Below, piece by piece: positions 19,698 through 32,000 of a stretch of DNA of 32,000 nucleotides. A program made the translations under genes and the position numbers. Within the stretch, counting starts at the first letter, position 1; every line of letters starts with the position of its first letter. This stretch comes from Pyrodictium occultum (GTDB lineage: Archaea > Thermoproteota > Thermoprotei_A > Sulfolobales > Pyrodictiaceae): NCBI RefSeq assembly GCF_001462395.1, contig NZ_LNTB01000001.1, positions 420,001 through 452,000 on the forward strand. The letters are read 5' to 3'. The notes beneath the pieces are model-generated. The model was given only the letters and a program-made list of their open reading frames with translations. It was not told the origin of the DNA and searched no databases.

Positions 19698-20945
19698 CTA
19701 AGATGTCTTAAAGTAGTGGGCCATCACAGCCTTGAGGGTTGGCCTGGCGAGCAGCAGGTATACTAGTATGCCGAGGGCGTGCACGCCAATGGTTATACCT
19801 ATCTCTATCGGCGTCGGGTAGTATGGCCTCACCTCGCCCAGGGTGCTGGGCTCGAAGGCTGGCAGCACTATCCTCATAGTCTTCTCGGCCACGACAGCTA
19901 CTATCGTGAGCGATGCTATGAATAATATGCCCCTCTTAGTGCTGTGGATGCGCGGCAACAGGCTTAGTATGACAGCGGCGGCGCCTAGAGATATCCAGAG
20001 CCATGCCAGCACCGACACGTACGGCAGATGCTGCCCCAGGAACATCGTTGCTGCCTGTGCCTTCTTGAGGGGCTCTGTGGTGTACCAGAATATCTCCTGC
20101 GCATCGCTGAGGGTGAAGTAGAGGCCTACTACTAGGCCGCCCACTATAACGTAGAGCGTCCTTCTGTAGACCTGGACATCTATCTTGAACCCATCCACAT
20201 ATCTTTCAGCTATGTAGAGGGCTACCAGCAGTATGGCTGGACCGCTGGCGAACGCCGTGGCAACGTACTCGGGGGCCAACAGTGGACTGTTCCATATAGG
20301 CCTCGCTGTTAACGCCTGGGAGATGAATCCGGTTACCGTGTGTATACCTATGGCGAAGGGCGCTGCTATTGTTATGAAGGGCACTATGAACTTCTTGGGT
20401 AGCGGCTTGTCCTGGCGGTAGTAGTGGACCGATGCTAGCACCCCTATCAGGTTTATGGTGAGGTAGCCAGTTATCACTATGAAGTCCCAGTCGAGCATCG
20501 AGTGTAGGTTGGGCAGCTGGGGCATCAGTATGAGCGCGCGTATTGGCCTGCCGAGATCGACGACGATAAGCATTAGCACGGTTATGAGTGCTGCTACGGC
20601 TTGTACCTCACTTAACGGGGCTATCTTCTTGAACTCCTCGTCCCCGAACACATATGCAGCCAGGCCGAAGGCTATGCCGGCGGCGGCTACACCGACCCAG
20701 AATATGAAGAAGGATATGTAGAGCCCCCATGCAACGCTGTCATTCATTGCCGTTAGTATAAGCCCGCCCTTGTCGCTTCCAAGGAATATGGGGGCGTGCT
20801 GCACGAATATCCAGAGGTAGAGGCCGTAGATGGCTACCAGCAGCAGCCCCAGCCCCGCTGCATAGTAGCGCGGGTTGTCCGAGACCAGGGCCTCTCTCAC
20901 AATGTACTTTATTGTACCCCAGAGACTAGGGCTCTCCCTGCTCAC
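19698..20945 (-). CDS. NrfD/PsrC-family integral membrane quinone-interacting subunit (long, about 10-helix type as in ActC/DsrP/HmeC)
   Basis: 415 aa and highly hydrophobic. Family-like segments are present: SVAWGLYISFFIFWVGVAAAG, VVDLGRPIRAL, HSMLDWDF, PIWNSPLLAPEYVATAFASGPA. It overlaps the Fe-S subunit gene by 4 nt. Confidence 0.85.
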   Translation of the reverse strand: MSRESPSLWGTIKYIVREALVSDNPRYYAAGLGLLLVAIYGLYLWIFVQHAPIFLGSDKGGLILTAMNDSVAWGLYISFFIFWVGVAAAGIAFGLAAYVFGDEEFKKIAPLSEVQAVAALITVLMLIVVDLGRPIRALILMPQLPNLHSMLDWDFIVITGYLTINLIGVLASVHYYRQDKPLPKKFIVPFITIAAPFAIGIHTVTGFISQALTARPIWNSPLLAPEYVATAFASGPAILLVALYIAERYVDGFKIDVQVYRRTLYVIVGGLVVGLYFTLSDAQEIFWYTTEPLKKAQAATMFLGQHLPYVSVLAWLWISLGAAAVILSLLPRIHSTKRGILFIASLTIVAVVAEKTMRIVLPAFEPSTLGEVRPYYPTPIEIGITIGVHALGILVYLLLARPTLKAVMAHYFKTS

Positions 20946-21985
20946 GCGTGGCCACCCCCTACCTGCCCCTCGGCTGCAGCTTGCTTGCGTGGAGGCGTGC
21001 GGGCTGGGCCGAAGAAGTAGAAGAACCTGGGCTTGGTACCCGCCTCGGGCTTAAGCACGAAGGCGCCGTACTCCTCCAACACCCTTCGTATTGGGCTATT
21101 GGGGTCGTTGAGGTCTCCGAACACCCTGGCGCCGACGGGGCAGACTTCGACGCACGCCGGCACCCCGCCGTCACGGGTGCGCTGGATGCACCAGGTGCAC
21201 TTCTCCATCACGTGGGGCTGCCTCGGTATATTGCCGAGTATATGCATATTGGGGTTTAGCTCCGTCACCGGTATGTAGGGCTTGGCCCAGTTGAAGTGGC
21301 GGGCGCCGTAGGGACAGGCGACCATACAGTACCTGCAGCCTATACAGCGGTCGTAGTCGACCACCACTATGCCGTCGGGCTCCTTCCAGGTGGCCCGCAC
21401 CGGGCACACCATGACGCACGGCGGGTCCTCGCAGTGCATGCAGGCTATCGGCACGTACACCTTGTCCGGCTTCGGCGCATCGTTATAGTGCATGTTGGCC
21501 TCCGTTATCTCCATTTCCTTCCGGGGCATCTCGACTACTTTTATCCACTCTATGTGCAGGTTCCTAGCCTGGTTGTTCTCCATAACGCAGGCGTAGGCGC
21601 AGCGGCGGCAGCCAATACACTTATTGACGTCGAGCGCCATTGCGTAGCGTACTCCCTTCCGGGGCCCGGTGGCCTTAACCCTTATCATCGCGCAGCGTTT
21701 CCGCGCCTCCCTGCAAGCATCGGAGCTCTCACCCCTCGCCCTGCATATCTTCTCAGCCTCCGCGCTGCACCACCTCTTTATCTTGACCTCCTTCTCTCGC
21801 GCCCTCCTCTCCAGGGGCGAGCCTGCCTCGGCAGCCTCGGCGACCAGGTCCTCGATTTTGACCGGCACCAGTATCTTCCTTAGGTGGGACCTGTCGACAG
21901 CTATGAACGATACAGCTGAGGCGCCGGCCGCGAGCGCAGCCGCCTTGAGGAAATCCCTTCTAGACCTATCCACCCCGCCCGACAA
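20942..21985 (-). CDS. Tat-exported four-cluster [4Fe-4S] ferredoxin-type subunit (NrfC/PsrB/DsrO/ActB2-like)
   Basis: 347 aa with a twin-arginine signal (SRRDFLKAAALAAGASA). Four cluster motifs are present: CIGCRRCAYAC, CMHCEDPPCVMVCP, CIGCRYCMVACP and CTWCIQR...ACVEVCP. An extra N-terminal Cys-rich helical segment is also present. Confidence 0.9.
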   Translation of the reverse strand: MSGGVDRSRRDFLKAAALAAGASAVSFIAVDRSHLRKILVPVKIEDLVAEAAEAGSPLERRAREKEVKIKRWCSAEAEKICRARGESSDACREARKRCAMIRVKATGPRKGVRYAMALDVNKCIGCRRCAYACVMENNQARNLHIEWIKVVEMPRKEMEITEANMHYNDAPKPDKVYVPIACMHCEDPPCVMVCPVRATWKEPDGIVVVDYDRCIGCRYCMVACPYGARHFNWAKPYIPVTELNPNMHILGNIPRQPHVMEKCTWCIQRTRDGGVPACVEVCPVGARVFGDLNDPNSPIRRVLEEYGAFVLKPEAGTKPRFFYFFGPARTPPRKQAAAEGQVGGGHA

Positions 21986-22003: not shown

Positions 22004-22735
22004 TCAGGCTCCAGAGGAGTTCTTACGGGAGCGCTCATAGGGCAGAACGAGTGCTCCCAGGACGAGGATCAGGCCCCCTACAACCGCCGCTATGTTGCCA
22101 TAGGTGACGCTGCTCTCATTGGGGGGCGGCGGCCTAAAGGAAGGCTCCGGGAGTATGTTGAGGGCCTTGAGCACCGGGTTGTGGGGGTCGTGGCACTCGA
22201 CGCAGGCCCTCGCAGGCACCGTCTTCAGGTCCTTGTAGCTGGGGCAGATGTGGAAGTTGTATATGACGCCCTTGTAGCCCTTAACCTTAACCACCTTGCC
22301 GCCCTGGCATACGAACGTCTTATTGCCGTGGACCAAGTTGATGTAGTCCCTGTACTCGCGTGGATGGCAGACGGCGCAGACCTTGTTGGTCTCCATCAGC
22401 TTGTCCCGGCTATGGGGCCCAGGTATGTAGACCTTCGCACCCCCCACAAGGTTTATCATTGTAGGCGGCCGGTGGCAGTTGGAGCATACAAGGCCACGAT
22501 GGGCGCCCTTTGTAAGGTTTATACCGTGGAAGGGCACCACCTTACGGTTGCCCGGCAAGTTCATGGCAGCATGGCACTTTGTGCATGGGTATATCTGGTA
22601 GAGCTGCTGGCCAGCTTGCTCGGCGCCGGCCCTGGCTGCAAGGGCTAGCGACAACACGACCATGGACAACAGCATGAGGATGGCTACAGCCCTAGAGCCA
22701 CGGAGCCACCCGTTTCTCAACGCATTCACCTCCAT
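22004..22735 (-). CDS. Tetrahaem c-type cytochrome with N-terminal signal/anchor and C-terminal transmembrane helix
   Basis: 243 aa with CxxCH motifs at residues 51 (CTKCH), 84 (CSNCH), 120 (CAVCH) and 178 (CVECH), plus many distal His candidates. The C-terminal segment is IAAVVGGLILVLGALVLPYERSRK. Confidence 0.85.
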   Translation of the reverse strand: MEVNALRNGWLRGSRAVAILMLLSMVVLSLALAARAGAEQAGQQLYQIYPCTKCHAAMNLPGNRKVVPFHGINLTKGAHRGLVCSNCHRPPTMINLVGGAKVYIPGPHSRDKLMETNKVCAVCHPREYRDYINLVHGNKTFVCQGGKVVKVKGYKGVIYNFHICPSYKDLKTVPARACVECHDPHNPVLKALNILPEPSFRPPPPNESSVTYGNIAAVVGGLILVLGALVLPYERSRKNSSGA

Positions 22736-23028: not shown

Positions 23029-23577
23029 CTAGCCCTCAACCCTCCCAGCGGGCGCCTTATAGCTCTCGTGACAGCCCTCGAATATCTTGGACACTAGGAG
23101 CACACTATAGGGGCCGGCTACCCTGGAGCCTGTGGAGGGATCCAGGAGGACCGCCTCCAGGGCTGGGTCGTAGGTACCCTCTACCACTATCCTCGAGGAG
23201 ACTGCAGGGCTGCCGCCATAGAGGGTCTTGAAGGTCGTTGCACTGTATAGTGCTAGGATCTTTGTATGGCCATCCTGCCCCTCTAGTATGAACACTGCAT
23301 AGCTATCGTCGCTGCCGAAGCGGGGGCCGCTTACCCTGCTAGCCACGGCGTAGGAGCCATACCCCTTGACTAGGAATAGCGTGTCTCCCACCCGGAGCAG
23401 GTAGGTGCCGCTCAGGCTGACCGGCCGCCCCTTGACCGTAACGTAGGCCTTGTACTCGAGGTTCTTTAGACTCGATACATCCCGGTAGTCGGAGGATTTT
23501 ATGCCTACAAGCCCTATGGCGAAGAGAAGCGCGAACAAAACCCCTGCTAAGACGATGTATTTACCTGCTTTAACCAT
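23029..23577 (-). CDS. ccmE: Haem chaperone CcmE, archaeal/Desulfovibrio-type with CxxxY in place of HxxxY
   Basis: 182 aa with an N-terminal anchor (YIVLAGVLFALLFAIGLVGI), a beta-rich body and a C-terminal VSKIFEGCHESYKAP. The CHESY motif is encoded at 23059..23073, and I verified it codon by codon. This parallels the canonical ...AKHDENY.P. The gene lies directly downstream of ccmC. Confidence 0.75.
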   Translation of the reverse strand: MVKAGKYIVLAGVLFALLFAIGLVGIKSSDYRDVSSLKNLEYKAYVTVKGRPVSLSGTYLLRVGDTLFLVKGYGSYAVASRVSGPRFGSDDSYAVFILEGQDGHTKILALYSATTFKTLYGGSPAVSSRIVVEGTYDPALEAVLLDPSTGSRVAGPYSVLLVSKIFEGCHESYKAPAGRVEG

Positions 23578-23621: not shown

Positions 23622-24653
23622 TTACCTCGTAGAGTTACGGAGCCTAGATATATAGAGCATCAGTAGGCCTAGTAGAACCATGTACATAGCCGCGTTGAGC
23701 GCCACACTCCAGTGTATTACTATCTCCACGCTTCCTCCATTAAGCCTCACTATATGACCGATTATGCTGGGCTTGCCATCAACCACCTGCACGTGGAGCG
23801 GCTTGGCAAGCTTCACGTAGCCGCTCCCTGAGAGGTTGAGCGCCACCACGGAGCCGTTAACAAGCCTGGCACCTAGTACACGCTCCACGCCACCGGCGAG
23901 GTAGGGGGAGGCCACTATAAAGCCTATCACCATGCCAAGCATCACAAGGCCGGCGCCTACGTAGCGAAGACTGCGCGTAAACGGGATCTCCTCCCCCCGG
24001 AGGCGCTCCGCCAGTGTATAGCTCAGCAGCACCGCTATCACAGAGGCCATGAGGACCCTGGCTATAAATACTCTCAGCACGGCTGGCTGCTCCATGAAAT
24101 CCCTGAAGTTCTCCACGGTGGGGTGCAGGCTCGAGGCGGCTACACGGGGAGCCAGGAAGCTTATAGGCACCATGGAGTAGGCGGCGACAGCGTAGACTGC
24201 GCTTAGCCTGCTAGCCCTATCGGGGTCAGGTATACTGGAGCGGAGCACGAAGTAGAGGATGTATGCGAGGAGTAGGAGGAGCACACCGGTCTCCCTTGGA
24301 TCCCAGGACCAGGCTGCGCCCCAGGACTCGCTGGCCCACGCCATGCCGCTGACGAGCGTGAACACTGCGTAGAGGGATCCGGTAAGCACGAAGGCTCTCA
24401 CGTAGGCGTCTAGCTTCTCCTTCCCGCGTGTCAGGTAGAGTATGGCCGAGGCGAATGCTAGCGTGTAGAGAAGGTAGCTGCCCCAGGCCATGGGTATGTG
24501 TATGTAGATGTTCAGGTAGGCTGTGGGCGAGCCCAGGCTGACCCGCAGCGGGTAGGGGGCATGGTACACAGCATAGATCACGAGGCCAGCGTCTACGAGG
24601 GCTAGCAGCGCTAGGAGCGGCGCCGCGAGCCTTGCGAAGCCTCGTGGAGGCAT
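23622..24653 (-). CDS. ccmC: Haem exporter/haem-handling protein CcmC with a C-terminal extension of about 120 aa
   Basis: 343 aa. The first His loop is NIYIHIPMAW, the WWD motif is WGAAWSWDPRETG and the second His loop is SSLHPT. After the sixth helix come an extra helix, a beta-rich segment of about 60 aa and a final helix. Confidence 0.9.
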   Translation of the reverse strand: MPPRGFARLAAPLLALLALVDAGLVIYAVYHAPYPLRVSLGSPTAYLNIYIHIPMAWGSYLLYTLAFASAILYLTRGKEKLDAYVRAFVLTGSLYAVFTLVSGMAWASESWGAAWSWDPRETGVLLLLLAYILYFVLRSSIPDPDRASRLSAVYAVAAYSMVPISFLAPRVAASSLHPTVENFRDFMEQPAVLRVFIARVLMASVIAVLLSYTLAERLRGEEIPFTRSLRYVGAGLVMLGMVIGFIVASPYLAGGVERVLGARLVNGSVVALNLSGSGYVKLAKPLHVQVVDGKPSIIGHIVRLNGGSVEIVIHWSVALNAAMYMVLLGLLMLYISRLRNSTR

Positions 24654-24693
24654 AGCTGCTCCTTCACCAAGGGGTAATCGATGCGGTAAAAGG

Positions 24694-24706
24694 GTATTTA
24701 ATGCTC
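24694..24706 (-). promoter_or_regulatory. Candidate BRE/TATA (minus strand GAGCATTAAATAC) for ccmC-ccmE
   Basis: This is the AT-rich box in the 80-nt ccmF-ccmC gap. Its centre is 47 nt upstream of ATG 24653. It matches the box at 19568..19580 at 12 of 13 positions. Confidence 0.45.
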
Positions 24707-24733
24707 AAGCCCGACATTTCCGCAGGCACCTTG

Positions 24734-27700
24734 TCACCTGCCACCCTCCCTGTAGGCTGCGACTCTCGAGGCCGCGGCATAGACGGCTGCTAGCGCCATG
24801 ACCAGGGGGCCGAGCCATACAAGCCTGACGCCGGGTATCACCTTGACCTCTACGTGGAGGCCCTCCCTGGCTATAGTCGAGTTCGCAGGATTGAAGTTCT
24901 CGGCTAGAAGGTAGAGGTCCATAAGCGTGGCCTCGAGCTGCTGCCTCTCACTATTATCCACCACGCCGTCCCGGAGCACGTCAATATTGTAGCCAGCAGC
25001 CATGAGGGCTGCCAGCGCTAGGCGCTTCTCCGGCGGCAGCTGCTTAAACGCCTCGTGCAGGTAGTATATGAGCAGCTCGTGGTAAGCCGCCCTACCGCCA
25101 ATGTAGCCCTCCACTACAGGCGGGCTCACCACTACATAGACGTCGCCGAGCCCGTTAGCTATGGGTATGACTTTTGATACTAGGCCGTGTATACCCTGAA
25201 CCTCGCCGTAGGCCTCGAAGCGGATGCGCACCCTTACATCCCTGTGGGAGCTGCCCTGGTCGAGCCTCAGCTTCACATCAAGCCAGGCTGTCTCCGGCAC
25301 GAGCTTCGGGGCGGCGACATAGCCCATGCAGCTGTGGACTCCTCTCAGGCATTTTGGCGAGCTTATTACCGCCTCCAGCCGGCTCGTGTTCGTCAGTATG
25401 CTGTAGATCGATGAGTGCTCTATCAGCCGGATAACCCTGCGCATTGTAGGGTCTGCGGAGGCTACTATGTAGGCGCTGACCGCCTGCGGCAGCTGTGAGG
25501 GCACCTCGATGCCGCCGCCCCCCGGCGCCGCTATCGAGCCGTAGATGTAGAGGGCTGCGTCGCTCCCGCTAATGGTCCTCCCCTTCAGGTCTAGTGGTCT
25601 GCCCTGGCCCGCGAAGAGCAGGGCTTCGGAGAGCAGGGCGGCGCGGCTCACCGTTATGTTTACCCCGTCGACAGCTATGCTGAGGGGCTTGCCGGGCTCT
25701 ATGCCTATGAACCGGTGTATGCCTATTTTCTGCTCCAGTGGGGCCTTCCTAGGCAGCACTATGGCCAGGTTACCGGCTACCAGCAGCAGGTTTACACTCA
25801 TTATCCCCGTGTTGGGATTCATGTTCAGATTGATGTTTATTGATGCATTGCTGAGTATTATCTCCACGGGCTCGCCGCCAGCAAGTACTACTGTAGTATT
25901 TCTCTCTAGGTCGAAGAGCTTGAGCGTGGCATTGGCCTTTACTACGAGGGTCTTGTTGAGGGCCAGCGGGCTCTTTCTGGCAATGCCGAGAAGCCAATCT
26001 ATTGTCTTGTTCCTGGCTACCAGTTGCTTGCCCTGGTTGTAGAGGTTGAGGAATCTCACTATATCGCTCTTTATGTAGTTTATCGTGCTCCAGGCTAGCA
26101 TATAGGTGCTGCTCCTGCCCACGTAGTCTGTGTATATGTCTACGGTGGAGTTGCTTATCCCGTAGCTATAGCCCTCGAAGACTAGCCTAGCTCCTCCGGG
26201 CAGCTCTATCGAGTCGCCGGGCTTCAGCTGGTAGTACCAGGTGTACTTGGTGTTGAAGGCGTAGGTGCCGCTGAGCAGCACACCTATAACGGTGACGGCG
26301 AGGCCCAGGTGGAGCAGGGACACGCTGGTCAGCCGGTCTGCCAGCAGCCTCCGGGGACCGAGGCGCAGCTTGTAGGCGAGGTAGGCTAGCACGGAGGCGG
26401 CGGCCACGAGGGCCCATGGGAGGCCGAAGGCCATCATCGCGTTTGTCGCAAGCGGGCTGAGCGGGGCTAGGAGGTAGGTGCCGCGGTAGGCGGCCAGCCC
26501 GAAGGCTGTAGCCACTATAGCGGTCGATGCGGTGAGGGCGGCGTAGCCGCGCCAGCCCAGCCTGTCGCCGGTGAAGGCTAGCGGGATCGCCGCGAGGAGG
26601 ACGACCAGCATCGGGTATAGTACTGGGTGGAAGTAGCGGATGCCGCTCTCCATCTGCGGCACGCTTACCTCACGGCCGATGGCCGTCAGTATTGAGGGTA
26701 GGAAGAGGGTGCCGTAGACGTAGACCGCCGCGGCGGCGAGCACGAGGCCGGCTACCAGCAGCCCCACAGTGTAGGGCTGGCGGCGCCTGAGCACGGCAGC
26801 AGCCTCTGAGAGCGCCTCCCCGCCCCTTCTGGCGGCGAGGTAGACTGCGTAGGCTGCGGGGGTCAGGCCCGCGGCCAGCAGCACTAGAGCGCCAGCACTG
26901 GGGGCTGCGAAGCTGTGGAGCGGGCTGAGCCCTGTACGCGTGACATACATAGCCATGAACACTGAGCTCAGCAGCCAGGCGGAGTTGAACGCTGAGAGGC
27001 TTGGCAGGGTCATCAGTAGGTGGGGCAGCACTGTTGCCACAAGCCATACCATGAGCTCGCTCGTCTCTACAGGGTCCCAGGCCCAGTAGCCTCCCCACCC
27101 GAAGGTCTCGTAGCTCCAGTAGCCGCCAAGCATTATACCAATGGTTAACAGTGCCCAGCCTAGCTCATACACCACCAGGCAGCGGCGCCTCTCCCCCGTC
27201 AGCATCGCGGCCGCGGCCACTGCGAGGAGGGCATAGCCGCTGAAGGTGCTGAGTGGGTGAGGATAGAGCCAGGGGCTCTTCAGCAACGGGTTGAGCCCGG
27301 CGCCGCTGGCAGGGTGCCCCTGCATAGGTGTGAAGGCATCGTTGAGGAACGCGGCCGCCAGCCCGGCCAGCACTATGCTGCCCAAGAGCGCCTGGAAGCT
27401 GCGGCGCCTATGCCTCTGGAGCAGGTAGAGGCCGGCGAGAGAAGCCAGCACGGTGAAGAGGTAGAGGCTGCCTCCGCCGCCAGCCCAGGAGGAGGCTATC
27501 CTCATCCAGGCCGGCAGCCCTGGACTAGTCTCCCAGAACACCTCCTTCAAGCTGTAGTCGAGGCGGACAAAAGCAGAGACGTATAGCAGCCACCCCAGCA
27601 CCGCTGCCAGGAGGCCGTAGCGCAGCAGCCTGGAGCCGTCCCGCCGGCCTAGGGCAGCCGCCACCCCGGCGGCTACGAGGACCCCGGAGGCCAAGGGTAG

Positions 27701-27754
27701 CACGCCAGTATAGTGGAGCGGAAGCGCCATCTTACCCAACCTCTTCCCATCCAC
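24734..27754 (-). CDS. ccmF: Cytochrome c-type biogenesis protein CcmF (haem lyase component), unusually long
   Basis: 1006 aa. The polytopic N-terminal two thirds carry the WWD motif WGGYWAWDPVETSELMVW and flanking His residues. Canonical landmarks for the start and end of the outer-face domain are present: KPGDSIELPGGARLVFEG and EVKVIPGVRLVWLGPLVMALAAV. A large inserted region lies between them. The start could be the internal MALPLHY. Confidence 0.9.
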   Translation of the reverse strand: MDGKRLGKMALPLHYTGVLPLASGVLVAAGVAAALGRRDGSRLLRYGLLAAVLGWLLYVSAFVRLDYSLKEVFWETSPGLPAWMRIASSWAGGGGSLYLFTVLASLAGLYLLQRHRRRSFQALLGSIVLAGLAAAFLNDAFTPMQGHPASGAGLNPLLKSPWLYPHPLSTFSGYALLAVAAAAMLTGERRRCLVVYELGWALLTIGIMLGGYWSYETFGWGGYWAWDPVETSELMVWLVATVLPHLLMTLPSLSAFNSAWLLSSVFMAMYVTRTGLSPLHSFAAPSAGALVLLAAGLTPAAYAVYLAARRGGEALSEAAAVLRRRQPYTVGLLVAGLVLAAAAVYVYGTLFLPSILTAIGREVSVPQMESGIRYFHPVLYPMLVVLLAAIPLAFTGDRLGWRGYAALTASTAIVATAFGLAAYRGTYLLAPLSPLATNAMMAFGLPWALVAAASVLAYLAYKLRLGPRRLLADRLTSVSLLHLGLAVTVIGVLLSGTYAFNTKYTWYYQLKPGDSIELPGGARLVFEGYSYGISNSTVDIYTDYVGRSSTYMLAWSTINYIKSDIVRFLNLYNQGKQLVARNKTIDWLLGIARKSPLALNKTLVVKANATLKLFDLERNTTVVLAGGEPVEIILSNASININLNMNPNTGIMSVNLLLVAGNLAIVLPRKAPLEQKIGIHRFIGIEPGKPLSIAVDGVNITVSRAALLSEALLFAGQGRPLDLKGRTISGSDAALYIYGSIAAPGGGGIEVPSQLPQAVSAYIVASADPTMRRVIRLIEHSSIYSILTNTSRLEAVISSPKCLRGVHSCMGYVAAPKLVPETAWLDVKLRLDQGSSHRDVRVRIRFEAYGEVQGIHGLVSKVIPIANGLGDVYVVVSPPVVEGYIGGRAAYHELLIYYLHEAFKQLPPEKRLALAALMAAGYNIDVLRDGVVDNSERQQLEATLMDLYLLAENFNPANSTIAREGLHVEVKVIPGVRLVWLGPLVMALAAVYAAASRVAAYREGGR

Positions 27755-27778
27755 GGCCGAGTGGAGCTATACGCGGGG

Positions 27779-28861
27779 CTAGACGAGCTGGAGGGAGTAT
27801 AGCAGGAGGTAGACGCCGGCGGCTAAAAGCACCGCGCCACCAACACGGCTTAGCAGGTCATACCTGGCCATGATCCTGCTGACAACGCTGCCGCCCACAC
27901 GGCTCACCGCGTAGACAGCCGCCAGCGGGATGCTGATACCGGCCGCGAAGCTGCCCGCCACCAGGAGCCCCGAGGCCAGGTTCCCGGAGCTGGCCACGAG
28001 CAGCAAGGCGCCGACCACTATAGGCAGGTTGCACTGGACCGCCAGGAAGCCGTAGACCGTGCAGAACCCCGCCAACCCGCCGCGGCGAGTGCTTACAAGC
28101 CCCTCAAGCTCCACCGGGACGCCGAGGAGGCTAGCCACCCCGGCGGCCACGACCGCGGCTGCCACAACCGGGACTAGTATGCTCTGCAGCGAGGAGGCCA
28201 GGCTAGAGGCCAGGGCGAACACGAGCCCTATGGCTATAACGCCGGCGAAGGACGCGGCGCCGCAGGCCACGCAGCCTGAGGCGCTGACCCTTCTACCGGA
28301 GGCACCGACTACACTGACGTAGGTTGCCAAGAGCGGCAGCACGCAGGGGGAGAAGGCGACCACCACGCTGGCGGCGAGCGCCGCCAACGCGCTCACCGCG
28401 CTAGCCCCCGCAGTGCCGGCCTCCTCGAGAGGGCTCGAGGCGCCACGCACCGGGGCGGCGGTAGTGGTGTTAGCTAGCGCCCTGCGGCCCACTATCCTAG
28501 GGGCCGCCTTGCCCTCGAGTATCGCCGAGACGTAGTCGAGGAAGTAGGCTGCCCTGTCAATCTCGTAGGATGACAGGTCCGGGAGGTACTTCCTCATAGA
28601 CGCTACCGCCGCCATTAATTCTCCATAGCTGCCGTAGAGCTTGCGGAGCGTCATATTCTTCTCCAGAGCCTCCTTCATCTTCTCCGCCAGCAGGTCGGGC
28701 TGCCCGCTACGCGAGGACAGCCAGGCCTCCAGAGACGCCTTATCAAGACCCTTCACCTCCCCGTGGCAGGCCGAGCACCGCTCGTTGAACACGCGCAGCC
28801 CTCCTGAGCAAGCTTCTCTGGCTCCGATACCGTGGCGGCGCCCACGGAGAAGAGAGCCCAT
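27779..28861 (-). CDS. ccdA: Monohaem cytochrome c domain fused to a CcdA/DsbD-type thiol-disulfide transporter membrane core
   Basis: 360 aa as listed. The cytochrome c domain reads LRVFNERCSACHG ... SMRKYLPDLSSYEIDRAAYFLDYV. An Ala/Thr linker follows, then six hydrophobic helices carrying the two conserved Cys motifs FSPCVLPLL and VQCNLP. The 5' 109 nt overlap the thioredoxin ORF; see findings. Confidence 0.85.
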   Translation of the reverse strand: MGSLLRGRRHGIGAREACSGGLRVFNERCSACHGEVKGLDKASLEAWLSSRSGQPDLLAEKMKEALEKNMTLRKLYGSYGELMAAVASMRKYLPDLSSYEIDRAAYFLDYVSAILEGKAAPRIVGRRALANTTTAAPVRGASSPLEEAGTAGASAVSALAALAASVVVAFSPCVLPLLATYVSVVGASGRRVSASGCVACGAASFAGVIAIGLVFALASSLASSLQSILVPVVAAAVVAAGVASLLGVPVELEGLVSTRRGGLAGFCTVYGFLAVQCNLPIVVGALLLVASSGNLASGLLVAGSFAAGISIPLAAVYAVSRVGGSVVSRIMARYDLLSRVGGAVLLAAGVYLLLYSLQLV

Positions 28862-29334
28862 TCCAGCATAGCATTCGTTATGTTGCTGCCCCCGAAGGCG
28901 CCCACGTGCCTGGCCACAGGCCTACCGTTAACAAACACTATGAATGTCGGCGTGTCGGTCACATGGTACCGCATAAACACGTCCTGGGTGGCGGGGCTGA
29001 ACATGACGTGGAGGAAGCGTATGGGGAGCCTATCGCTCTCGTGCTCCAGCACCGCCCAGTAGGGGTACATCCTCTTACATACAGGGCACGTGGGTGACTC
29101 GAACATAACCGCTACAGGCTTTGATGACCCCAGCACAACTCTGTCGAACACACTGGAGCTTCTTATCGAGTACCCGCTTACGCTTAGATAGTAGTTAGCC
29201 ACGTGCATCTCATGCTCAATCAGCGCTGCCGTGAACGAGGCGGCGACTATAACCACGGAAGCCAGCAGCAGGCCGGCCCTCTTAGCCCGCTGGAAGCCGC
29301 GCAGGTCCAGACGCATCCTACGTGGACTTCTCAT
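28753..29334 (-). CDS. Membrane-anchored thioredoxin-fold thiol:disulfide oxidoreductase (CcmG/ResA-like role by context)
   Basis: 193 aa as listed. A basic N-terminus is followed by the anchor AGLLLASVVIVAASFTAALI. KPVAVMFESPTCPVCKRMYPYW carries CPVC at 29077..29088, and ...TPTFIVFVNGRPV is a Trx-fold cis-Pro region. The last 14 residues (CACSTSGARPATGR) look like out-of-frame read-through. Confidence 0.85.
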   Translation of the reverse strand: MRSPRRMRLDLRGFQRAKRAGLLLASVVIVAASFTAALIEHEMHVANYYLSVSGYSIRSSSVFDRVVLGSSKPVAVMFESPTCPVCKRMYPYWAVLEHESDRLPIRFLHVMFSPATQDVFMRYHVTDTPTFIVFVNGRPVARHVGAFGGSNITNAMLEWALFSVGAATVSEPEKLAQEGCACSTSGARPATGR

Positions 29335-29400
29335 ACCCGCTGCACCAGTAGCCCATACCCTCTAGGCCAACGATTGTGGCAAACCCATGGCTTCGTAGAA

Positions 29401-29430
29401 ATAGTCACAGCTAATTTACCTTGTGACTAT
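29401..29430. promoter_or_regulatory. 9-bp perfect inverted repeat ATAGTCACA / TGTGACTAT flanking a 12-bp AT-rich spacer (GCTAATTTACCT)
   Basis: Read directly. It lies in the 116-nt gap between the ccmB stop (29451) and the thioredoxin start (29334). It is either an operator around a TATA-like box or an RNA hairpin followed by TTTCT on the minus strand. Confidence 0.4.
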
Positions 29431-29450
29431 ACCTTTCGCCCCGGCTAGCC

Positions 29451-30122
29451 CTACACCTCCTCGAGCACATAGCGGGAGAGCCACACAGTCAGGCCGGCGA
29501 AGAGGAGAGCTGCAGCCGCGAGCCAGCCCACCTCTAGGAGCGAGACAGGGGAGCCGGCCAGCGCCGCCACAATGCTCGGCGCGGCTGACTGTATGTAGGG
29601 CAGCACGAGCACGAGCACCATAACCGGCATGAGCACTGCGCGGGCCTCGCTGAACACGAGTATCGCGGAGGTGAAGCTGGACACAGCGGCCAGGTACATG
29701 CTGGAGACCAGGGCTAGGAGCAGCACGACAAGCCTTAGAACGCTCACAATCTGCGCGAAGAAGCCCATTGACGCTAGGAACACCAGCGTCTGTAGAAGTA
29801 TCACAGCCATGCTGTAGATGAACTTCGCCATAAATACAGCCTCCGCGCCTATGGGGGCTAGGCGGAGCCCATCAAGGGTCCCCCGGTCGGCCTCACGCAC
29901 AAAGCTCGACAAGCTTCCGAACACCGCGAGAAACACTAGGACCAGCGTCAAGGCTATACTCGTGGCAGCCGCGTTGACGCCGGCAGCGCTCCTCATAACG
30001 TAGGCTGAGAGCAGGCCTGCAGAGACGGAGAAAACCAGCATAGAACCCGCCTCAACGCGCCGACGTATGTCGAGCAGTACATCCCGGTGTACTATGGCTA
30101 CTACAGCGCCCAGCACGCCCAT
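29451..30122 (-). CDS. ccmB: Haem exporter membrane protein CcmB
   Basis: 223 aa with six hydrophobic helices. HRDVLLDIRRR near the N-terminus and FVREADRGTLDGLRLAPI match the conserved CcmB loop (F..E...GTLE.L...P). Confidence 0.8.
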   Translation of the reverse strand: MGVLGAVVAIVHRDVLLDIRRRVEAGSMLVFSVSAGLLSAYVMRSAAGVNAAATSIALTLVLVFLAVFGSLSSFVREADRGTLDGLRLAPIGAEAVFMAKFIYSMAVILLQTLVFLASMGFFAQIVSVLRLVVLLLALVSSMYLAAVSSFTSAILVFSEARAVLMPVMVLVLVLPYIQSAAPSIVAALAGSPVSLLEVGWLAAAALLFAGLTVWLSRYVLEEV

Positions 30123-30169
30123 GAGCCCCCGAGGGGCTCTAGAGCACCGAACCCTTCTCCCTTCTTAGC

Positions 30170-30894
30170 CTAGCCGCCCCCAACCACCGGTTCTTCGACA
30201 CTCTCTCCGACACCCGCCTTCCCGCGCTTTAACCCGTGCTTGGAGCCTAGACGCTTCTCTACCACGTTCATCTGGTGCTCTCCCTGCAGCATCCTGCCTA
30301 CTAGGTATTGCGGAAGCTCGTGGCGTACGAAGGCGTCTATTATCTTTGATTCAGCTCTCCGGAGGAGCTCAGCCAGCGTTGACACCGAGAGCCCAAGGCT
30401 CTCCGCGAGCTGCTTGAGGCTTATCCTACGGGGAAGCTATAGTAGCCCATGAAGTAGGCGTATATTATCGCGAGCTCCTGCTTCTCCGTAAGCATATAGG
30501 CGTACTCGTCTATGCTATGACTGTGGATTATCTTGCAGCCCCATCTACGTAGCTCCTCGAGAGCGCTGCTGCGGGCTATTATGAACTCATACAGGATGCC
30601 TAGAGGCATGAGAACCACCGTCTTAGACATGGCCCCTATAGGGGCCGCTATTAGCGGGCACGCACTGCCCTCCGGCTCTGCCGCGCGTTTACTACAGTAG
30701 CTCCTCTTGGAGACGAGTATGCGGAGAATCCTGTTAAACTTAAACTTATTAGAATAGATCCGTAAATCCAGTGCCTCCGTCAGAGCCTTCATCGAGTTCA
30801 TGATGCCCGCCGAGCGAGGGGACGGAACTAATAGCCTTGAGCAATGGGCAGTCAATGTTACGTATACAATATATAACGAGCGGCTTGTTAGCAT
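30170..30894 (-). pseudogene. HTH_10 (Bat-type) family transcriptional regulator interrupted by a 1-nt frame disruption
   Basis: ORF 30421..30894 ends ...LTEKQELAIIYAYFMGYYSFPVG*. My translation of the -1 frame continues RRISLKQLAESLGLSVSTLAELLRRAESKIIDAFV, joining ORF 30170..30385. Together these give the complete HTH_10 motif (LT..Q...L..A...GY...PR...L.ELAE.LG.S..T..E.LRRAE.K). The break is at the C4 run (G4 on the + strand, 30430..30433). GC is lower than in the neighbouring genes. Confidence 0.7.
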
Positions 30895-30930
30895 GCATCC
30901 CTTAGCACCCCGGGAGCTCTAATACGGGCA

Positions 30931-31020
30931 TTAATTCTGGGGGCGGAATACGTAAATAAACAGAAATAAGCACAGAAATAAGCAGGGTATGAGGATGAGA
31001 GAGGATGAGAAGGGAAACAT
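30931..31020 (-). CDS. Speculative 29-aa hydrophobic micro-ORF (MFPFSSSLILIPCLFLCLFLFIYVFRPQN)
   Basis: My own translation runs from ATG 31020..31018 to TAA 30933..30931. A strong AT box (gtaattataaaatattac, 31062..31079) has its centre about 50 nt upstream, the same spacing as the other promoters here. Both tandem repeats lie inside it, and CLFL-CLFL comes from the 12-mer. It could equally be non-coding. Confidence 0.25.
   Translation of the reverse strand: MFPFSSSLILIPCLFLCLFLFIYVFRPQN
30961..31010. repeat. Two adjacent tandem duplications: CAGAAATAAGCA x2 (30961..30984) and GAGGATGAGA x2 (30991..31010)
   Basis: Read directly. All copies are perfect. They lie in the AT-rich 382-nt gap upstream of the regulator gene. 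Confidence 0.9.
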
Positions 31021-31276
31021 ACTACCAGCTCCACCCGCTTAGTCGCGTGTTATCGAGCATCGTAATTATAAAATATTACTGATGAGTGGCGTCGAGCTAT
31101 AGCGCTTGCCAGCGACACAGGCTACTAGGACCGTCTAGCTAGGGGTAGGCGAGAAAGCACAACGCCCAGTGCTACGCCCAGAGCGCCTGATACGATCCAT
31201 CCTGGTGCACTGGCGGGGGCGTGAGAGTGCGTTAGGACAGTTGCCCCGTGCGGGTTCTGGCTCCTCTCCGGGTTCT

Positions 31277-32000
31277 CTACTGGCACCGGGCTACCGGTGG
31301 TAACGTAGGTGGCATAGCCGGTGGACTTGTTGCGTGTAGTTTGCGTTCGTGGAGGGCTGCTTGCCGCGTCGCGGGGGTTGAGGCAGATGTGCTACTATTC
31401 TCGAAGACTTCTATATCTATGAATGGCCAGCTGTCCGCCCTGCTTGCAGCCGCTATGAGAGCCGGGCCTATGCTGGCTTTAAGCCTCTTCCTACACCCCG
31501 AGGGTGCTAGGGAGAGCATTGTTCTAATCAGGTCCAGCAGGCTTACGGGCTTACCGCCGCCCGCCAGCGAGCTGTTGAAGAGCTGGCGTAGGGCTCTCGT
31601 GTATAGGTCCGTGCCGCAGGCATGGACCCCAGCGTACCAGAGGGCGGCATTCATCCTCATCCAGGTGGCGTACGCGTCCCCGGCCTCTATGGAGCCACGC
31701 ACGTAGCTTACTGCCATGCTGTAAAGCCTGGGGTCCGCGTCGTGGAGGGCTTTCAGCGCCAGGAACTCGGTAGCCGCCTCCTCTAAGCTGAAGTCCCGCC
31801 GAGCAGCCCGCTGTTTAGCCACCCATGCACCGTCTCGTGGGCCGCTGTGTGCACGAGCCAGGGGAGATCCACCTGGAGTAAGCCCGTCTTAATGTAGACC
31901 ATTCCCCCAGTGCTATGGCCGCTCTTGGGGAGCTGCAGTGGCTGCCCCTCAGGGTCGACGAGCACCACTAGCACTGGGGAGCGGGGGCTAGGGCCCAGCC
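31277..32000 (-). pseudogene. HExxH zinc metallopeptidase-like gene (gluzincin-type spacing), frame-disrupted and truncated by the window edge
   Basis: The upstream frame is open to position 32000 and reads ...VYIKTGLLQVDLPWLVHTAAHETVHGW, with HETVH at 31825..31839. The -1 frame continues (V)AKQRAARRDFSLEEAATEFLALKAL, supplying a Glu 16-17 residues after the second His. The junction is at the G3 run (C3 on the + strand, 31822..31824). The C-terminal 45 residues of ORF 31277..31822 are Pro/Ser/Thr/Ala filler, so the true 3' end is uncertain. Confidence 0.5.

Follow-up and report, generated by a model that had tools for sequence, protein, structure and literature searches.

We analyzed a 32,000-nucleotide stretch of the genome of the archaeon Pyrodictium occultum PL19 (contig NZ_LNTB01000001.1, positions 420,001 to 452,000; this whole stretch is called the window below, and coordinates refer to it), and focused on two overlapping open reading frames (ORFs) of its minus strand. 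Judged from sequence comparison, these two frames are one conserved archaeal gene (27779..29334, minus strand), which encodes 518 amino acids when one G is added at 28799..28801. Our best explanation, which we consider very probable as a whole, is that the intact product has seven membrane helices and is built from a membrane anchor, a thioredoxin (Trx) domain, a cytochrome c-type domain, a linker and a CcdA-type membrane core, in this order.

The first ORF (29334..28753, minus strand, 193 amino acids) encodes a hydrophobic anchor at its N-terminus, followed by a thioredoxin domain. The second (28861..27779, minus strand, 360 amino acids) carries a CcdA-like membrane domain at its C-terminal end. 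They overlap out of frame by 109 nucleotides (28753..28861), and the codons of a CSACH motif (28777..28763, minus) lie within this overlap. The frame changes at a run of three G residues (G3; GGG at 28801..28799 on the minus strand). On the 5' side of the run, the Trx frame is protein-like (...NAMLEWALFSVGAATVSEPEKLAQEG), and it terminates in CACSTSGARPATGR and a stop codon. The CcdA frame begins there with 21 residues of Arg/Gly-rich filler (MGSLLRGRRHGIGAREACSGG) that contain no hydrophobic signal, after which it reads LRVFNERCSACHG... An initial annotation of this DNA had proposed that the restoration of one G would give a tripartite protein of about 518 amino acids with the junction EKLAQEG-LRVFNERCSACHG. 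Its coordinates for the ORFs, the 109-nucleotide overlap, the CSACH motif and the G3 run all proved correct on the minus strand.

We used the 518-amino-acid sequence restored by one added G as the query in a homolog search. It matched 40 proteins, 32 of which are single ORFs of 512-587 amino acids with at least 94% query coverage. The best match, P0001 from a sister strain, is a single ORF of 519 amino acids with 98% identity (E = 0). Its junction (...SEPEKLAQEGLRVFNERCSACHG...) reads ...EKLAQEGLRVFNERCSACHG and is identical to the one predicted for the window. At least 36 homologs of 477-587 amino acids are single ORFs, which for these homologs answers the question, raised by the initial annotation, of whether orthologs are one, two or three genes. 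Among them are the single ORFs of Pyrodictium abyssi (PABY_02440, 522 amino acids, on a 2.22-Mb contig record) and Hyperthermus butylicus (WP_011822655 / A2BMX6, 523 amino acids, on a 1.67-Mb contig record). The overlap of the two ORFs is not a chance pattern, because the restored sequence matches both a 98%-identical single-ORF protein and further single-ORF homologs. All statements on invariant residues below come from an alignment (A1) of 36 full-length homologs.

The DNA of P0001 was available from two independent sister-strain assemblies (DRR667394 and SRR5453782), and both have GGGG at the G3 site, as the proposed restoration of one G would require. The P0001 gene and the window gene share 98.5% nucleotide identity. 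The only indels along the gene are the GGGG/GGG site and one in-frame GGC codon near 27924.

We then compared a larger region, aligning positions 23779..32000 of the window (8.2 kb) to the sister-strain contig (98.9% nucleotide identity). Six single-base gaps fall inside G/C runs (31798, 31366, 31123, 30434, 29443 and 28802), four of them in coding sequence, and the window has the shorter sequence at all six. Only one gap runs the other way, and it lies in a T run. In three cases, tblastn distributes a gene that the sister strain has intact over two or three frames of the window: a gene of 495 amino acids (from the window end to ~31128), a 296-amino-acid HTH_10 regulator and the Trx-cytochrome c-CcdA fusion. 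A count of 3,360 coding sequences in 1.6 Mb is, by our own estimate, about twice the usual gene density, and it suggests genome-wide gene fragmentation in the PL19 draft. This is the number of protein-coding genes given in the genome announcement of P. occultum PL19, whose authors assembled MiSeq data with SPAdes and then made a superassembly in Geneious (PMC4767911). Because all six gaps run one way, other genes are broken and the gene count is high, we have high confidence that the G3 run most likely stems from an error in sequencing or assembly. Frameshift artefacts in the PL19 draft would then split real genes, which calls for caution with its gene counts and pseudogene calls.

Some considerations weigh against an error. 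The reference contigs come from a different strain, at ~1% divergence, and the comparison was one between assembled sequences. Illumina sequencing, on which the PL19 assembly is based, rarely miscalls short homopolymers. The one-base deletion could thus be genuine in PL19, making the gene either a recent pseudogene or a source of two polypeptides, a 193-amino-acid anchored Trx protein and a cytochrome c-CcdA protein started from an internal ATG or GTG. In favor of this, the sequence given for the window does read G3, deep MiSeq data are not expected to miscall a four-base homopolymer, and a loss of the gene may be tolerable, since another anaerobic archaeon can do without CcdA and CcmG when conditions are reducing. 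However, the six same-direction gaps within 8.2 kb and the two other broken genes look like error rather than selection, and the count of 3,360 coding sequences in 1.6 Mb points the same way. The second ORF would also have to export a domain of ~150 residues without a signal sequence and with 21 residues of Arg/Gly filler at its start, and all 36 aligned homologs are single ORFs. We consider a genuine deletion improbable.

A further alternative is programmed recoding at the G run, where a -1 ribosomal frameshift or slippage during transcription would yield the fusion, possibly as a regulatory step. It would fit the overlap of the frames and the fact that the needed shift is one base at a homopolymer. 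No relative needs it, however: the closest one has an in-frame GGGG, and the others have plain ORFs. A-GGG-CTG does not have the form of a slippery heptamer, transcriptional slippage needs a run longer than three, and the same type of break affects other genes nearby. We rejected programmed frameshifting on these grounds, and its likelihood is negligible next to that of an error in the assembly.

The restored protein was divided into modules, all encoded on the minus strand. Residues 1-39 (29218..29334) form a predicted cytoplasmic Arg/Lys-rich tail and a single membrane anchor, according to hydropathy, charge and AlphaFold2. The anchor is GLLLASVVIVAASFTAALI in the window, and P0001 has V in place of its first A. 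Hydropathy places a single N-terminal helix at residues 21-39 and six more beyond residue 308, and the full-length AlphaFold2 model places a helix at residues 11-50. This model, computed on the alignment, has a mean predicted local distance difference test (pLDDT) score of 80, with confident domains. A low-complexity, flexible linker at approximately residues 284-307 (28415..28486) is gap-rich in A1 and varies in length among homologs. It is disordered in the model, with pLDDT <50 for residues 283-298 and 303-307.

Averaged over the 36 homologs, the number of Lys and Arg residues is 6.6 in the N-terminal tail, 1.5, 2.3 and 3.8 in loops 1, 3 and 5 of the core, and ~0 in loops 2 and 4. Because this distribution follows the positive-inside rule, we predict that the N-terminus is inside, that the Trx and CxxCH domains are outside, that the first transmembrane helix (TM1) of CcdA is entered from the outside, and that the C-terminus is outside. 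The charge statistics thereby bear out the path drawn in the initial annotation, from an in-to-out anchor through an outer Trx and an outer cytochrome c domain to CcdA. At the N-terminal end, the sequence MRLDL (residues 7-11) is nearly invariant and several homologs begin there. From this pattern, the true start may be Met7 (ATG 29316) instead of 29334.

The thioredoxin-fold domain (approximately residues 55-165; 28840..29172) is predicted to be extracytoplasmic and scored 43.6 bits against PF00085 in Pfam (cut-off 23.5). A Foldseek search with the full-length model returned thioredoxin matches only, and none to the other modules; the target-normalized template modeling score (TMt) to classical thioredoxins was mostly 0.7-0.9. 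The initial annotation had asked for a structure prediction of the fused product, and the prediction matched the Trx fold and left the middle domain without a Foldseek match. The active site CPVC (Cys83 and Cys86; 29077..29088) is conserved, with C83, P84 and C86 invariant. In the cis-Pro loop, P129 and T130 are invariant, and T128-P129-T130 as a whole is invariant or nearly so. No Redoxin or AhpC-TSA match (PF08534, PF00578) was found in Pfam at E up to 0.1. By sequence and by model, the module is a classical thioredoxin and not a member of the CcmG/ResA/TlpA family.

The Trx module may nevertheless work like CcmG/ResA, as its setting is of the CcmG type: it has a membrane anchor and a predicted outward topology, and its gene lies between CcmB and CcmF. 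The initial annotation had named a separate CcmG/ResA thioredoxin as the usual partner of CcdA. The module is like such a partner in its anchoring, its predicted orientation and its place in a ccm cluster, but not in its family, which is that of classical thioredoxins by both Pfam and fold.

The C-terminal module (27782..28414) is a CcdA-type core with six transmembrane helices, as indicated by its match to a CcdA structure, hydropathy and the positive-inside pattern. A phmmer search against all PDB sequences gave a single match, Thermus thermophilus CcdA (5VKV; E 8e-4), over nearly the full length. The score against PF02683 (DsbD_TM) was 13.6 bits for the window ORF and 24.0 bits for the homolog P0044, with a cut-off of 27.1. 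As in the CcdA family, there are six transmembrane helices with one conserved Cys each in TM1 (in a PC motif) and TM4. Cys331 of the SPC motif in TM1 (28343..28345) and Cys435 of the VQC motif in TM4 (28031..28033) align with the TM1 Cys and the second Cys of 5VKV, respectively, and S329-P330-C331 and Q434-C435 are invariant. The GGC codon that the window lacks relative to P0001 lies in this module (~27922..27927, minus) and changes PLAAAVYA to PLAAVYA, removing an Ala of TM5. The site is within a GGC repeat, and none of the 36 aligned homologs has a gap there; this could be another assembly slip.

The middle domain (restored residues 166-283; 28487..28839) is all alpha-helical, with seven helices, and profile-profile homology supports reading it as a divergent member of the class I cytochromes c. 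Its invariant residues are C187, C190, H191, W205, M247 and L266. The first three belong to the CSACH motif (28763..28777), W205 is encoded at 28721..28723, and M247 (28595..28597), a candidate sixth heme ligand, lies 7 residues ahead of a conserved LSxxE helix. For the second ORF, Pfam gave sub-threshold matches only, to Cytochrome_CBB3, Cytochrom_C and DsbD_TM. A profile of 28 middle-domain sequences (A2) matched almost only c-type cytochromes among PDB sequences (CcoP and cytochromes c6, c and c1; the best were CcoP, cytochrome c6 and mitochondrial cytochrome c), and these matches rest mainly on the N-terminal helix and CxxCH. When 1.84 billion representative proteins were searched with HMMER, the full-length domain was found only within proteins of the same architecture. 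The remaining matches were multi-domain cytochromes that aligned over the first ~30 positions, and those checked were genuine PF13442 repeats.

A comparison with nine bona fide PF13442-type domains by hhalign gave a probability of 96.6% (E 5e-10), and at a relaxed threshold the alignment was colinear end to end, including the C-terminal LSxxE...YL helix, with an archaeal insertion of ~25 residues. AlphaFold2 modeled the domain alone with high confidence (pLDDT 94.4, predicted template modeling score 0.88) as seven helices, placing a helix at domain residues 7-21 and then CxxCH. In this model, the order of the helices looks compatible with class I. The domain thus resembles Cytochrome_CBB3 domains (PF13442; for example, that of CcoP) in its N-terminal helix ending in CxxCH and in its colinearity over the whole length, and differs from them in its ~25-residue insertion, its scores below the cut-offs, the missing Foldseek match and the confinement of the full-length domain to the fusion family.

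We consider it probable, from the sequence evidence, that the middle domain binds heme covalently, because an invariant CxxCH, Trp and Met suit a His/Met pocket and are hard to explain otherwise. Several results count against this. The gathering scores were missed (PF13442, 18.9 vs 27; PF00034, 15.5 vs 21.3), and hhalign does not put Met247 opposite the ligand Met of the PF13442 templates. The confident AlphaFold2 model of the domain has no Foldseek match in the PDB (best E 3.3); CcoP appears only at E 4.9 with a TM-score of 0.28, and this comparison recovered neither a cytochrome c fold nor a different one. The initial annotation had described a typical cytochrome c here. The class I homology was upheld by profile comparison, whereas its typical character was not, given the unmet Pfam cut-offs and the lack of a Foldseek match.

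These gaps leave room for a CxxCH that is never loaded with heme and acts instead as a third redox Cys pair in a DsbD-like relay (running from CcdA to Trx to CxxCH, or in reverse), or as a CcmH/CcmI-like module that handles apocytochromes and makes up for the CcmH missing from archaeal System I. With its three invariant Cys pairs, the fusion resembles DsbD. Archaeal System I operates without CcmH and CcmI (PMC9084895), and the genome paper on Pyrodictium delaneyi treats the ortholog as a possible CcmH stand-in (PMC5556600). Against a heme-free function, a thiol relay leaves the invariant His, Met and Trp unexplained, and the profile is homologous to genuine PF13442 heme domains. The module is also missing from a relative encoded beside CcmF, so it is not an obligatory relay step. 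The hallmark of CcmH is a three-helix bundle with an LRCxxC motif. No CcmH was among the matches of the middle domain in PDB sequences, Foldseek or Pfam, and we rejected a CcmH-like reading of the CxxC for this lack of similarity in sequence or fold. Altogether, a heme-free middle domain appears quite unlikely, and covalent heme binding is the reading that we prefer.

Two homologs from related archaea, P0035 and P0040, are anchor-Trx-linker-CcdA fusions without the ~120-amino-acid CxxCH domain (L009 6001..7263; L012 3760..4944 / L013 2370..3554). They have the same invariant Cys residues and 45-47% identity. P0040 is directly upstream of CcmF despite the missing heme module. The neighborhood of P0035 contains no ccm genes, and this fusion adjoins a PAPS-reductase/ferredoxin-like gene. 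The correlation between heme module and ccm context is therefore partial, as P0035 lacks both, and P0040 lacks the module and still precedes CcmF. The middle module is 30-48% identical to that of relatives; the corresponding values are 45-59% (Trx part) and 40-63% (CcdA part). On this sequence record, the anchor-Trx-CcdA design is the core of the family, and the heme module is an accessory retained by most Ccm-linked members. Because some relatives do without it, we regard the heme module as accessory rather than as a core catalytic step.

By analogy with CcdA-ResA/CcmG and DsbD, the Cys pair of CcdA would take up reducing equivalents from a thioredoxin in the cytoplasm and pass them to the outer face of the membrane. 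CcdA would then reduce the tethered outer Trx domain, which would fill the role of CcmG/ResA and keep the CxxCH of exported apocytochromes reduced for heme attachment by CcmF and CcmE. The protein's own CxxCH module is probably among the clients, and would be an obvious first one because it is on the same chain, ~100 residues from the Trx active site. Once loaded, it would become a His/Met heme c domain beside the thiol relay.

The mature heme module might serve as an accessory one-electron part that couples or poises the thiol relay against the outer cytochrome pool, with a back-up electron input or a redox sensor as variants. We put forward this accessory role tentatively, as a possible rather than a likely function. 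It is favored because the module can be lost, because it evolves faster yet keeps the residues of the heme pocket, and because there is a precedent in NapB, a c-type cytochrome that reduces CcmG in Shewanella (PMC8782879). As in that case, which was seen in a dsbD mutant of Shewanella oneidensis (PMC8782879), a c-type cytochrome would be tied functionally to a Ccm thioredoxin. Unlike NapB, which is a separate diheme suppressor, the heme domain considered here is part of the same polypeptide and has His/Met-looking ligands. A His/Met heme normally has far too high a potential to reduce a Trx disulfide, which argues against the electron-input version. Under reducing conditions in the laboratory, Methanosarcina acetivorans can dispense with CcdA and CcmG (PMC9084895), which also weighs against the proposed mechanism and makes the physiological need for such a pathway in a strict anaerobe uncertain.

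It is less likely, and in our view doubtful, that the heme module takes an active part in the archaeal maturation of cytochromes c, a pathway without CcmH, CcmI and a separate CcmG. Its heme would gate or feed the CcdA-Trx thiol relay in response to the redox state of the outer cytochrome pool, or the apo form would be a third Cys pair or an apocytochrome-like docking element that delivers the reductant to CcmF. If true, the machinery for making cytochromes c would itself include a cytochrome c domain. If the module carries heme, the maturation factor would also be a product of its own pathway, a defined case of this kind, and could connect one-electron reactions of heme with two-electron reactions of thiols at the surface of the membrane.

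The fusion shares features with several known systems. Like CcdA with a separate CcmG, ResA or CcsX (Systems I and II), it has a six-helix core with TM1 and TM4 Cys residues and an outward, tethered partner of the thioredoxin fold, it is encoded with ccm genes, and its presumed job is to keep the CxxCH of apocytochromes reduced. It differs from them in being one chain, in having a classical thioredoxin (PF00085), and in the heme c-type domain inserted between the two parts. CcdA and DsbD cores fused to thioredoxin-fold domains are known from DsbD, ScsB and DipZ. Here too, a DsbD/CcdA core is joined to an extracytoplasmic thioredoxin fold, with several Cys pairs per chain. Compared with DsbD, the order is reversed, as the initial annotation had recognized: Trx is N-terminal on its own anchor helix, the six-helix core comes last, and nothing follows it. 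The core has six helices instead of eight, the Ig-like alpha domain is absent, and a CxxCH cytochrome-like module is added. Separate CcmG-CcdA pairs are the norm, with adjacent ccmG-ccdA genes in Methanosarcina (PMC9084895).

We found no description of a cytochrome c-type domain inside a CcdA-Trx protein in the searchable literature. The initial annotation could not match the architecture to any described scheme, and it does appear undescribed in the literature searched; it is not unique to this genome, however, and is already public with generic labels, for example 'thioredoxin fold domain-containing protein' or 'cytochrome c biogenesis protein'. Database annotation of the homologs covers thioredoxin Pfam families only and leaves the heme module unannotated. 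In the P. delaneyi genome paper, the ortholog is called simply a 'CcdA superfamily' protein, located between ccmF and ccmB, and it is absent from the list of CXXCH proteins of that genome (PMC5556600). A survey of archaeal cytochromes c noted that Trx-family proteins with an N-terminal helix are frequent false positives (PMC4429474), and the H. butylicus fusion protein was not found in the part of its supplementary lists that was available to us. What is new is the recognition of the heme module and of its conservation, as the protein family itself is already public.

The significance of the fusion lies in the thiol chemistry of the pathway. To our knowledge, archaeal System I makes c-type cytochromes without CcmH, CcmI and CcmD, and how it handles the thiols of apocytochromes is an open question. 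An entire clade of hyperthermophiles, which includes Pyrodictium, Hyperthermus and uncultured Thermoproteota related to them, has a different arrangement, in which the reductant channel and its Trx partner are joined in one protein with an invariant putative heme-binding module between them.

By sequence, the fusion gene sits in an archaeal variant of a System I operon that comprises CcmB, the fusion, CcmF, CcmC and a CcmE of the CxxxY type, all on the minus strand. The upstream gene (29451..30122) encodes a CcmB-like ABC-2 permease identical to the P. occultum protein WP_058370375 / KSW11698 (CF15_02450). Directly downstream of the fusion is a CcmF heme lyase of ~1000 amino acids (24734..27754), followed by a CcmC-like protein (23622..24653) and a candidate archaeal-type CcmE (23029..23577; 182 amino acids, with an N-terminal anchor and the end ...EGCHESYKAP). 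The CcmE candidate has no Pfam or NCBIfam match; CHESY in its C-terminal end is a CxxxY motif, and the protein is conserved downstream of CcmC in L004, L005 and L011. The fusion is directly upstream of a ~1000-amino-acid CcmF in L001-L008 and L011-L013, with L009/L010 as exceptions, and this gene pair is kept in every fetched locus with a heme module (L001-L006, L008 and L011). None of the genes examined was identified as CcmH or CcmG.

CcmF is ~1000 amino acids long in the window and in all relatives, and its residues ~520-1006 have no family match and end in a membrane helix. The usual size of CcmF is ~650 amino acids. The conserved extension could hold the functions that CcmH and CcmI have in bacteria.

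Further genes of the minus strand, directly downstream of the ccm genes, encode a membrane-anchored tetraheme cytochrome c with four CxxCH motifs (22004..22735), a 4Fe-4S protein with a twin-arginine translocation (TAT) signal (20942..21985) and an NrfD-type membrane subunit (19698..20945). The three resemble a respiratory module linked to quinones, and the maturation system probably has them among its clients. On the other side of CcmB, the frameshifted HTH_10 regulator lies at ~30173..30900 (minus strand). In this gene, 167 nucleotides of the sister strain are missing from the window, beside a 6-nucleotide indel (30748..30763), and the two sequences differ by an additional 10-nucleotide repeat indel at ~31010.

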